A stretch of 64,000 nt of DNA from assembly GCA_964016885.1 (NCBI GenBank), contig OZ024766.1:3720001-3784000 (forward strand), read 5' to 3'. The notes below the pieces were generated by a model, which searched no databases, was not told the DNA's origin, and saw only the letters and a program-made list of their open reading frames with translations. The position numbers and the translations under genes are program-made. This document shows, piece by piece, positions 53,878 to 54,555 of this stretch (the first letter of the stretch is position 1; each line of letters opens with the position of its first letter). The DNA is from Eledone cirrhosa. Lineage: Eukaryota.

Positions 53878-54020
53878 ATTGATGACGGATGCTGAAAGCG
53901 TCCATAAGCGGTAGGCCGTTTAAGTATGATATCACATAGAAAACGAAGAATCAGTGTTGCGACGAATAAGATTTATTAGACATATTATAATCGTTTGGAA
54001 ACTGCTTCGTAGAAAATCGA

Positions 54021-54115
54021 GACGTATCTGAGGATCTTGCGATTTCAGAGTCAGGTTCGATCATTGCATCGATCGTGCCTCGAGCTGGTCGCCAGAGAAA
54101 CAATTGTAATATGTC
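54021..54115 (+). ncRNA. Type I hammerhead ribozyme with extended stem II
   Basis: Stem I GACGUAU/AUAUGUC, core CUGAGGA, stem II UCUUGCGA/UCGCCAGA, GAAA, palindromic stem III ACAAUUGU, GUA cleavage after 54108. Confidence 0.75.
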
Positions 54116-54158
54116 TAAGAAATGTTAATCGTCGCAACACTGATTCTCCGTTTCTTAT

Positions 54159-54221
<63 letters not shown>

Positions 54222-54266
54222 ATTGCCCTGATGAGTCCTCAATAGGACGAAACATTGTCGGCTAAT
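54222..54266 (+). ncRNA. Minimal type I hammerhead ribozyme (Penelope-type)
   Basis: GCC-CUGAUGA-GUCCU(CAAU)AGGAC-GAAA-C(AUU)G-U-C-GGC. All core nucleotides are intact, with GUC cleavage after 54259. Confidence 0.85.
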
Positions 54267-54555
54267 AAAGACTTTTGATGTATTGAAGGCTTCTTTGTTT
54301 TACTTTCTTAATTCTTCAGCTCTGTTTAACTACATTGAGCTATACCTTTTACTGTCATTTCTATAATACGAAGAGGGTGTTTAACTCCAACACGCTCCAG
54401 TATTTTAACCCTTATAGATATATATATTTGCCAATATAAGTTTGTGTATATTGATTTATTATTTTTTAAATCGATACAGGCAGGCTATATTAATTTGAAT
54501 TAGTTTGTTTCATTCTAGCTAACTTGTCTTTTACAATACAAACACTTAGGTGTTT

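Follow-up and report, generated by a model that had tools for sequence, protein, structure and literature searches.

Hammerhead ribozymes in the truncated ends of Penelope-like elements (PLEs) are well described, and octopus PLEs carrying hammerheads are on record. Dimeric PLE hammerheads were reportedly treated by Luense et al. in 2017. According to PMC8557442, PLEs leave inverted 5'-truncated copies, have optional tails and target (TA)n, and PMC13282606 records them as abundant in Octopus vulgaris. Cleavage by the PLE hammerheads published to date is poor, and takes place in dimers or with the aid of protein (PMC4209133 and PMC11167929). In PMC11167929, the hammerhead of the PAc element is active only with the element protein, genomic ends and tails are tied to internal reverse-transcription starts downstream of the hammerhead, and the work suggests that PLE hammerheads are dispensable. 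For the Hydra clade, File S1 of PMC8557442 gives a (TA)n target in 26 of 27 rows, one Octopus bimaculoides family being included, and in the 26 hammerhead rows of File S2 the nucleotide N17 is A in 12 and the core reads CUGAGGA in two. For cephalopods, our literature search, of limited reach, returned no description of the families and the long-stem-II fold reported here, the sole relevant match being PMC8557442. The supplement file of PMC4209133 that we examined has no octopus entry, and the literature on GUA cut sites yielded nothing usable.

The locus that we compare with these systems lies in a 64,000-nucleotide stretch of DNA, hereafter the window, and holds two hammerhead motifs, A and B. 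The whole locus is probably a PLE-type remnant containing A and an unrelated remnant containing B, lodged in one microsatellite and both inert here. It would thus represent two separate 5'-truncated retroelement 3' ends inserted into a single (TA)n tract.

Table. Coordinates of the two insertions, their boundaries and the long-stem-II relatives in the window.
Feature	Position	Strand	Remark
(TA)19 tract, left boundary of insertion A	53837..53874	.	
59-nt continuation of inverted copy to TA tract	53875..53933	-	sequence
Inverted partial copy of A	53934..53996	-	55/63 identical to 54098-54160, E 3e-17
23-nt spacer	53997..54019	+	unmatched elsewhere in window
Hammerhead A, type I, long-stem-II form	54020..54116	+	cut after A54108
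3' flank of A	54117..54161	+	element meets (TA)n 53 nt past cut site
(TA)28 tract separating insertions A and B	54162..54218	.	57 nt
Hammerhead B, canonical type I	54219..54270	+	Rfam RF00163, match 54222-54266
3' flank of B	54271..54417	+	meets (TA)n 158 nt past cut site
Relative C1	6033..6093	+	same long-stem-II fold, core 6041; 29-bp-arm inversion (5932-6012) beside (TA)n precedes
Relative C2	15016..15079	+	same fold, core 15024; inverted copy of own 3' flank (14874-14928) precedes, as in A
Relative D1	40874..40941	+	same fold, core 40882; different family
Relative C3	41244..41308	-	same fold, core 41300; faces D1
Relative D2	54766..54850	-	3' half only of fold; about 500 bp downstream of B; ends at (TA)n

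Motif A is closed by an 8-bp stem I with one G-U pair (54020-54027 with 54109-54116), within which follow the core CUGAGGA (54028-54034), a 62-nt stem II (54035-54096), the letters GAA and a stem III made of the self-complementary ACAAUUGU (54100-54107), with a GUA site. Stem II starts with 3 bp and then a U-C mismatch, and its energy of -23.6 kcal/mol (z -2.5) was equalled by 2 of 200 shuffles. The basal pair of this stem is U-A in place of the usual G10.1-C11.1, G-C being the common pair at this position according to PMC4209133. Rfam left motif A unmatched even at E 10.

Motif B has a CUGAUGA core (54228-54234), a 4-bp stem II, GUCC(U)/(A)GGAC, with a 6-nt loop, a 7-nt stem III (ACAUUGU) and a GUC site, the predicted cut falling after C54259. 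Its stem I consists of three contiguous pairs, then a U-U mismatch or bulge, then 3-4 more pairs, and the 5' strand of this stem enters the TA tract. Rfam Hammerhead_1 (RF00163) matched motif B with 33.3 bits (E 7.3e-6) without reaching the cut-off of 34. An AATAAA sequence is found at 54264-54269, 5 nt past the cut. The preliminary description had called both hammerheads intact and compared them with the minimal type I hammerheads of PLEs and retrozymes. The letters of the catalytic cores are indeed in place, but A lacks G10.1-C11.1 and stem I of B is imperfect, and neither motif is minimal, A having its 62-nt stem II and B being canonical. The presence of A was confirmed, and it runs one pair further at each end (54020-54116) than the 54021-54115 given earlier.

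Both motifs have the CUGANGA ... GAAA ... UH core in a three-way junction and the type I layout, with the ends in stem I (8 bp in A; 3 bp plus 3-4 in B) and stems II and III closed. A hammerhead scan, which had been put forward as a check, gave 5 matches to a strict descriptor in the window, whereas 300 block-wise dinucleotide shuffles averaged 0.023 and never exceeded 1, with B near the Rfam cut-off, and an independent pattern tool gave 4 matches against a null of 0.02. Motifs A and B are thus type I hammerheads at the sequence level. Rfam at its curated cut-offs returned only two tRNA-like SINE matches from the whole window, and at E 0.05 the 150 matches listed of 186 rows were almost all microsatellite-driven miRNA matches. 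The candidate at 42540-42573 matched the core pattern and was rejected, its stem I being missing.

The long-stem-II fold of A is common to C1, C2, C3 and D1, with 98 of 100 stem cells pairing (20 pairs in 5 copies) in a core-anchored table whose register we set ourselves and from which the fourth stem II column was left out. That fourth position is a pyrimidine-C mismatch in all five full copies. Between A and C1, 13 of the 20 pairs are changed on both sides with pairing kept. When only C1, C2, C3 and D1 are considered, pairing extends to 96.4% of 84 cells, and in 5 of 21 pairs both sides are changed; this result was matched by 1 of 500 shuffles, with slid controls at 35-56%, figures that are support and not a probability because they come from 4-5 related sequences and the shuffle ignores relatedness. 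The stem covariation that the preliminary description had asked for among copies was found, as compensatory changes in the A-type fold across the five in-window copies. Only about half of the positions align when the 53-nt 3' flanks of A, C and D are compared, which points to different families sharing one fold.

Within the window, family C has three copies, the tail of B two, and A only its inverted arm, there being no second independent copy of family A. A sequence-only model from six aligned copies recovered one further piece, the inverted arm of C2, together with three weak TA-rich matches. The A-type pattern also occurred at 13 loci in bacterial and archaeal genomes, and these were discarded: none has the stem II base-and-mismatch layout and none gave a BLAST match to the elements. 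A conserved hairpin in the 3' flank was likewise rejected, with z from -1.3 to +1.3 in seven flanks. Perhaps A and its four relatives form an undescribed hammerhead subtype that marks several families of an unclassified, very abundant group of TA-targeting octopod PLEs, a proposal that we make tentatively and with more doubt than conviction. Such a subtype might, with the same reservation, be recognised by a 7-8-bp stem I, a stem II of 3 bp at the base followed by the pyrimidine-C mismatch and a 26-62-nt arm, an 8-nt self-complementary stem III, and A at the cut.

Two arrangements among the relatives were also observed. At C2 (14874-15182), the inverted arm joins a 23-bp fold-back (14925-14970) straight to the 3' flank, the ribozyme being skipped. 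The junction has a 4-nt microhomology and lies no more than 3 nt from the predicted cut site (15071). It may have arisen from an RNA template that had been cleaved, or by a jump between templates. Relatives D1 (+) and C3 (-) face each other with a LINE 3' end between them.

Insertion A (53875-54161) would be the 3' end of a TA-targeting Penelope-like element, made up of a type I hammerhead, a fixed 3' flank of about 53 nt and a 5' inverted partial second copy that we infer to have arisen during target-primed reverse transcription. An inverted copy of the 3' flank had been reported at 53936-53997 versus 54098-54160; it is present with 55 of 63 positions identical, and its ends differ by 1-2 nt, at 53934-53996 versus 54098-54160. 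This copy holds the 3' half of the ribozyme (AAAC, an altered stem III, the cut site and the 3' strand of stem I) plus the 3' flank. The CUGANGA half is absent, for which reason a minus-strand hammerhead in the arm was rejected. The 59-nt continuation, of which the 64-kb window holds no other copy, is presumably a longer 3' tail form of family A, by analogy with the tails described in PMC8557442 and PMC11167929. A look-alike of a decayed core on the plus strand at 53875-53905 (UUGAUGA...GAAA) is without stems I and III and passed no scan. The 23-nt spacer is probably the sole remnant of the element body 5' of ribozyme A. Divergence between the two arms amounts to 8 of 63 sites in A but to 3 of 55 in C2, and in view of this the left arm of A may have come from a sister subfamily that inserted separately.

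The boundaries of the copies were then compared. A run of (TA)4 or longer is met 53, 50 and 52 nt past the cut in A, C3 and D1, that is in three of the five full copies, the background for this spacing being 4.3% of unmasked positions; the TA tract of C3 is partly its own AT-rich flank. In C1 the first (TA)4 lies 18 nt past the cut, within the flank, and the copy continues to 147 nt, while the inverted arm of A reaches 111 nt past the cut site. The main copy of C2 is interrupted, with no (TA)4 within 500 nt. The elements appear to have short and long 3' ends. Inversions at the 5' side occur at A, C1 and C2, with A and C2 inverting their own 3' flank and C1 its 5' flank. Insertions A and B are both bounded by (TA)n, a bias also found in Naiad and Neptune.

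These features suggest that the A-type elements, which look like 3' ends of Penelope-like elements, have their closest match in the Hydra clade. The PLE derivation proposed for both motifs is supported for A, on the in-window relatives, the TA-bounded ends and the 5' inversions, but for B a PLE rather than a retrozyme origin was not shown. The expected link to a PLE gene for a telomerase-like reverse transcriptase or a GIY-YIG endonuclease was not seen in the window, Pfam finding neither in any of 132 ORFs, which are the ORFs of at least 55 codons outside tandem repeats (134 in all) apart from those at 1531-1737 and 35431-35613, both on the plus strand. The only Pfam matches among the 132 were zf-RVT (51819-52583) and a C2H2 finger (40125-40295). 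Insertions A and B are each shorter than 300 bp, so a coding PLE remnant is not expected in them. Since no PLE protein remnant was found among these ORFs, any assignment to a clade is tentative, and on the hammerhead geometry compared below we do not file motif A as Hydra.

Insertion B (54219-54417) measures 199 bp, is enclosed by TA tracts and would be a solitary fragment of a family unrelated to A, consisting of a canonical hammerhead and then a poly(A) signal. Its source would be either a PLE pseudo-LTR or a monomer of a PLE-derived retrozyme. That the two families are unrelated, as had been claimed, agrees with the absence of any BLAST match between A and B. The stretch 54319-54420 has a second copy at 49439-49540, 97% identical over 102 nt and likewise ending in (TA)n, which is probably a shorter 5' truncation of family B and may alternatively be a separate repeat. 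BLAST found no second copy of ribozyme B in the window, and the B pattern gave 0 matches in bacterial and archaeal genomes.

A different origin for B, and perhaps for A, is that they are solo monomers of non-LTR retrozymes, which are noncoding tandem units of about 170-400 nt that are transcribed, self-cleave, circularise to give abundant circular RNA and use PLE enzymes in trans. We consider this unlikely, although it is the alternative that deserves the most weight. The size of the B fragment would suit it, as would stem-loop II of B, in which 12 of 14 letters follow the consensus of Rfam Hammerhead_1. In mussels, repeats of 350-390 bp contain about 5000 type I hammerheads (PMC7229834), and solo monomers are common, with an ancestry of retrozymes from PLE pseudo-LTRs being argued in bioRxiv 10.64898/2026.07.22.740005. 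However, the locus has no tandem unit, TRF giving only (TA)n there, and neither ribozyme has a second copy in the window by BLAST. Moreover, B runs from the ribozyme to (TA)n, as a truncated 3' end would, its second fragment (49439-49540) also stops at (TA)n, and the inversion of A is a PLE-type layout. Hammerhead units arranged head to tail, the mark of a retrozyme, do not occur in the window. The direct tandem structure of pseudo-LTRs is also absent from the window, and it is optional in truncated copies. Without a tandem unit B is not a retrozyme array, and a solo monomer of a PLE-derived retrozyme or a PLE pseudo-LTR would both fit. For A, we retain the reading as a PLE 3' end.

The behaviour of the motifs as RNA was examined by folding, all results on A and B being equilibrium models. 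The palindrome of A has +2.4 kcal/mol as an isolated hairpin and -6.4 as an 8-bp duplex. Accordingly the dimer-type stem III attributed to A was supported, in that folding favours the strand-swapped dimer (-69.4 kcal/mol) over two monomers (-58.2 to -60.0); an alternative dimer swapped via stem II was 0.7 kcal/mol lower than the strand-swapped one. In these models dimer cleavage is most likely for A in its parent element, where two tandem copies would swap strands, the 8-nt palindrome becoming a full stem III, possibly with the aid of the element's protein. At the present locus the modelled pairing probability of stem I is 0.97 for A alone and 0.83 for a chain starting at 53998. It falls to 0.000 once 53934-53996 is included, with a cost of 18 kcal/mol, to 0.018 in an arm-containing chain that ends at 54116, and to at most 0.018 in all modelled arm-containing plus-strand transcripts. 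The inverted arm pairs with the 3' half of A at -69.2 kcal/mol, and A would be locked in this 63-bp duplex by its own arm when transcription starts upstream. As the locus lacks a coding region and, in cis, any partner of the same family, and as A is locked by its arm, both insertions are most likely inert remnants here.

The preliminary description had proposed that a plus-strand transcript across both motifs could release an RNA of about 150 nt. In its favour, 151 nt separate the cut sites, the plus strand carries both cores complete in their catalytic letters, stems I and II of B persist in long contexts with mean modelled pair probabilities of 0.72-0.94, and a transcript start within 53997-54019 would leave stem I of A formed (0.83). 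Nevertheless, we find it very improbable that A and B act jointly to release a defined 151-nt RNA. The arm removes stem I of A even in the chain to 54116, and stem III of A is unstable in the monomer. The two motifs also cannot activate each other, since their stem I strands are not exchangeable: cognate stem I duplexes have -6.8 and -3.9 kcal/mol but cross-family ones only -0.4 and +0.8, and an A/B heterodimer was rejected on this ground. Because the arm blocks A and B is no substitute, the fragment would require a start inside the 23-nt spacer and a partner in trans. The fragment itself is A or U at 116 of its 151 positions, including a 57-nt (UA)n run, and no promoter is known for it. A run of T4 can stop Pol III, and the upstream tRNA-derived SINE, which we take to be an octopus tRNA-derived SINE, reaches its first T4 run at 53822, ahead of the locus. 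On these models the claim of a released RNA is not supported and a functional 151-nt product is unlikely. Since B keeps its fold in context, a read-through RNA could be cut once, at 54259.

The closeness of A and B is explained by shared targeting. The gap between them is 105 nt, of which 57 nt are (TA)n. Two of 6-7 cores fall within 200 bp of each other in 9-12% of random placements over 64 kb, or in 20-27% over the unmasked part, figures that take in no TA-targeting bias. Hammerheads are crowded elsewhere as well, with D1 and C3 being 418 bp apart and both the decayed core at 53288 and D2 lying within 750 bp of the pair. Chance resemblance in repetitive, AT-rich DNA might be suspected from the failure of both A and B to pass the curated Rfam cut-off and from doubtful matches in looser scans (e.g. 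at 43841 and 47204, both on the minus strand, and at 42540). This reading is refuted at the sequence level, and has next to no probability left, given the counts of both tools against their nulls, the E value of B and the compensatory changes across families.

Of the 64,000 bases in the window, 36,274 were masked by TRF, and the region 53837-55136 consists of 60-290-bp segments split by (TA)n tracts, of which two have in-window copies likewise ending at (TA)n and three have none. The window has recurrent short inverted repeats beside (TA)n. Further short elements, whose inverted arms start 1-6 bp from (TA)n, lie at 41424-41738, 48379-48643, 49646-49924, 49121-49219 and 44677-44731, and hammerhead scans of these five found none. 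A third, decayed hammerhead (53264-53345, plus strand, core at 53288) is found 740 bp upstream of A. Its core is CUGAUGA; stem I is long (duplex -19.4 kcal/mol), stem II short and stem III damaged. Its 3' flank contains a SINE (about 53445-53644) between 14-bp direct repeats, and a second piece of this flank is at 48822-48938, beside (TA)n. Nearly identical tRNA-like heads at the Rfam cut-off, probably SINE heads, occur at 35658-35717 and 44369-44432 (+). The segment 51819-52840 (+) is the 3' end of an L1/Tx1-like LINE with zf-RVT in the ORF 51819-52583, whose two named relatives among 6 matches are from Argonauta hians (55%) and Octopus sinensis (41%), which marks the genome as octopod-like. 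A short frame at 40125-40295 (-) has one C2H2 zinc finger at its end, then a stop, and we assume a LINE C-terminus to be more likely here than a host exon. Another short frame, 53668-53836 (+), ends just ahead of the left (TA)n tract without a Pfam match; to us it seems to resemble the C-terminus of an RTE-type LINE.

The A-B pair itself matters little, being the usual residue of TA-targeting retroelements in a microsatellite. Of more consequence may be the long-stem-II fold, which is kept by compensatory change in at least three families within 64 kb and is missed by Rfam. Five full cores in 64 kb correspond to about 80 per Mb and, if the window is typical, would mean motifs of the order of 100,000 per octopod genome that are invisible to Rfam. 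If the subtype reading is true, the fixed mismatch becomes a candidate site for protein binding or a tertiary contact. Constructs of the A type would address whether PLE hammerheads cleave as dimers, need the element protein or are dispensable. The inverted arms, if transcribed, would give long double-stranded RNA, possibly a substrate for editing or silencing.

In comparison with known systems, the Hydra-clade PLEs of Craig et al. (2021, PMC8557442) resemble A in having a type I hammerhead near the 3' end and (TA)n targets. In that paper A is common at the cut site, as in motif A, the CUGAGGA core also occurs in Hydra-1_Amil and Penelope-2_NV, stem III of Penelope-2_NV has the same 4-bp arms as motif A, and an inverted 5' copy is recorded for Penelope-13_HM. 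The Hydra consensus sequences end about 36-47 or 88-116 nt past the cut (six, judged by eye), compared with 50-53 or 111-147 in the window. Proteins of the Hydra clade have the RT motifs RWK/DKT and a C-terminal endonuclease without CCHH, whereas the present insertions contain no coding sequence. The geometry differs. Stem III has an even 8 nt in the A-type motifs against 9-10 nt in Hydra, and the core halves are separated by 26-62 nt, with the fixed pyrimidine-C mismatch after 3 bp, against at most about 26 nt. An inspection of the 26 Hydra hammerhead rows by eye showed no stem III of 8 nt and no distance between the core halves above about 26 nt, and motif A, with 8 nt in stem III and 62 nt in stem II, departs from the File S2 geometry of a 9-10-nt stem III and a short stem II. 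In the supplement of PMC8557442 five short motifs from the window had 0 matches, and the 3' ends of Hydra-1_Obim and of the octopus Naiad elements (Naiad_Obim, _Ovul, _Omin), compared by eye, are unlike A or B. An origin from a Naiad 'half-core' was not supported, as Naiad elements lack a canonical hammerhead, full cores are present here and the 3' ends are dissimilar.

Metazoan PLEs carry minimal hammerheads (Cervera and de la Pena 2014, PMC4209133) that have, as here, a palindromic helix III and a helix II of more than usual length, and that are mostly single, from truncated PLEs, with dimer activity predicted; pairs are also described, on opposite strands and 100-700 bp apart, which we count among the likenesses to the window motifs. 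Motif A differs from this minimal type in its 8-bp stem I, 8-nt palindrome, far longer stem II and lack of G10.1-C11.1, and B differs in being canonical. Motif B is closer to the non-LTR retrozyme hammerheads (RF00163; Cervera and de la Pena 2020, PMC7229834), with which it shares the 4 bp of helix II, an almost identical loop and the very small helix III. Unlike these, B is single and not tandem, and its imperfect stem I is cut off by the TA tract. Finally, the hammerhead of the Poseidon element PAc of Anolis (Frangieh et al. 2024, PMC11167929) is described with stems I and II only and overlaps the start of an ORF, unlike A and B, in which frames from the ATG just past the cut of A and in the core of B close within 5 codons. 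In other respects PAc agrees with the present elements, having fixed 3' ends downstream of the hammerhead, with or without a tail, and AT-rich targets.
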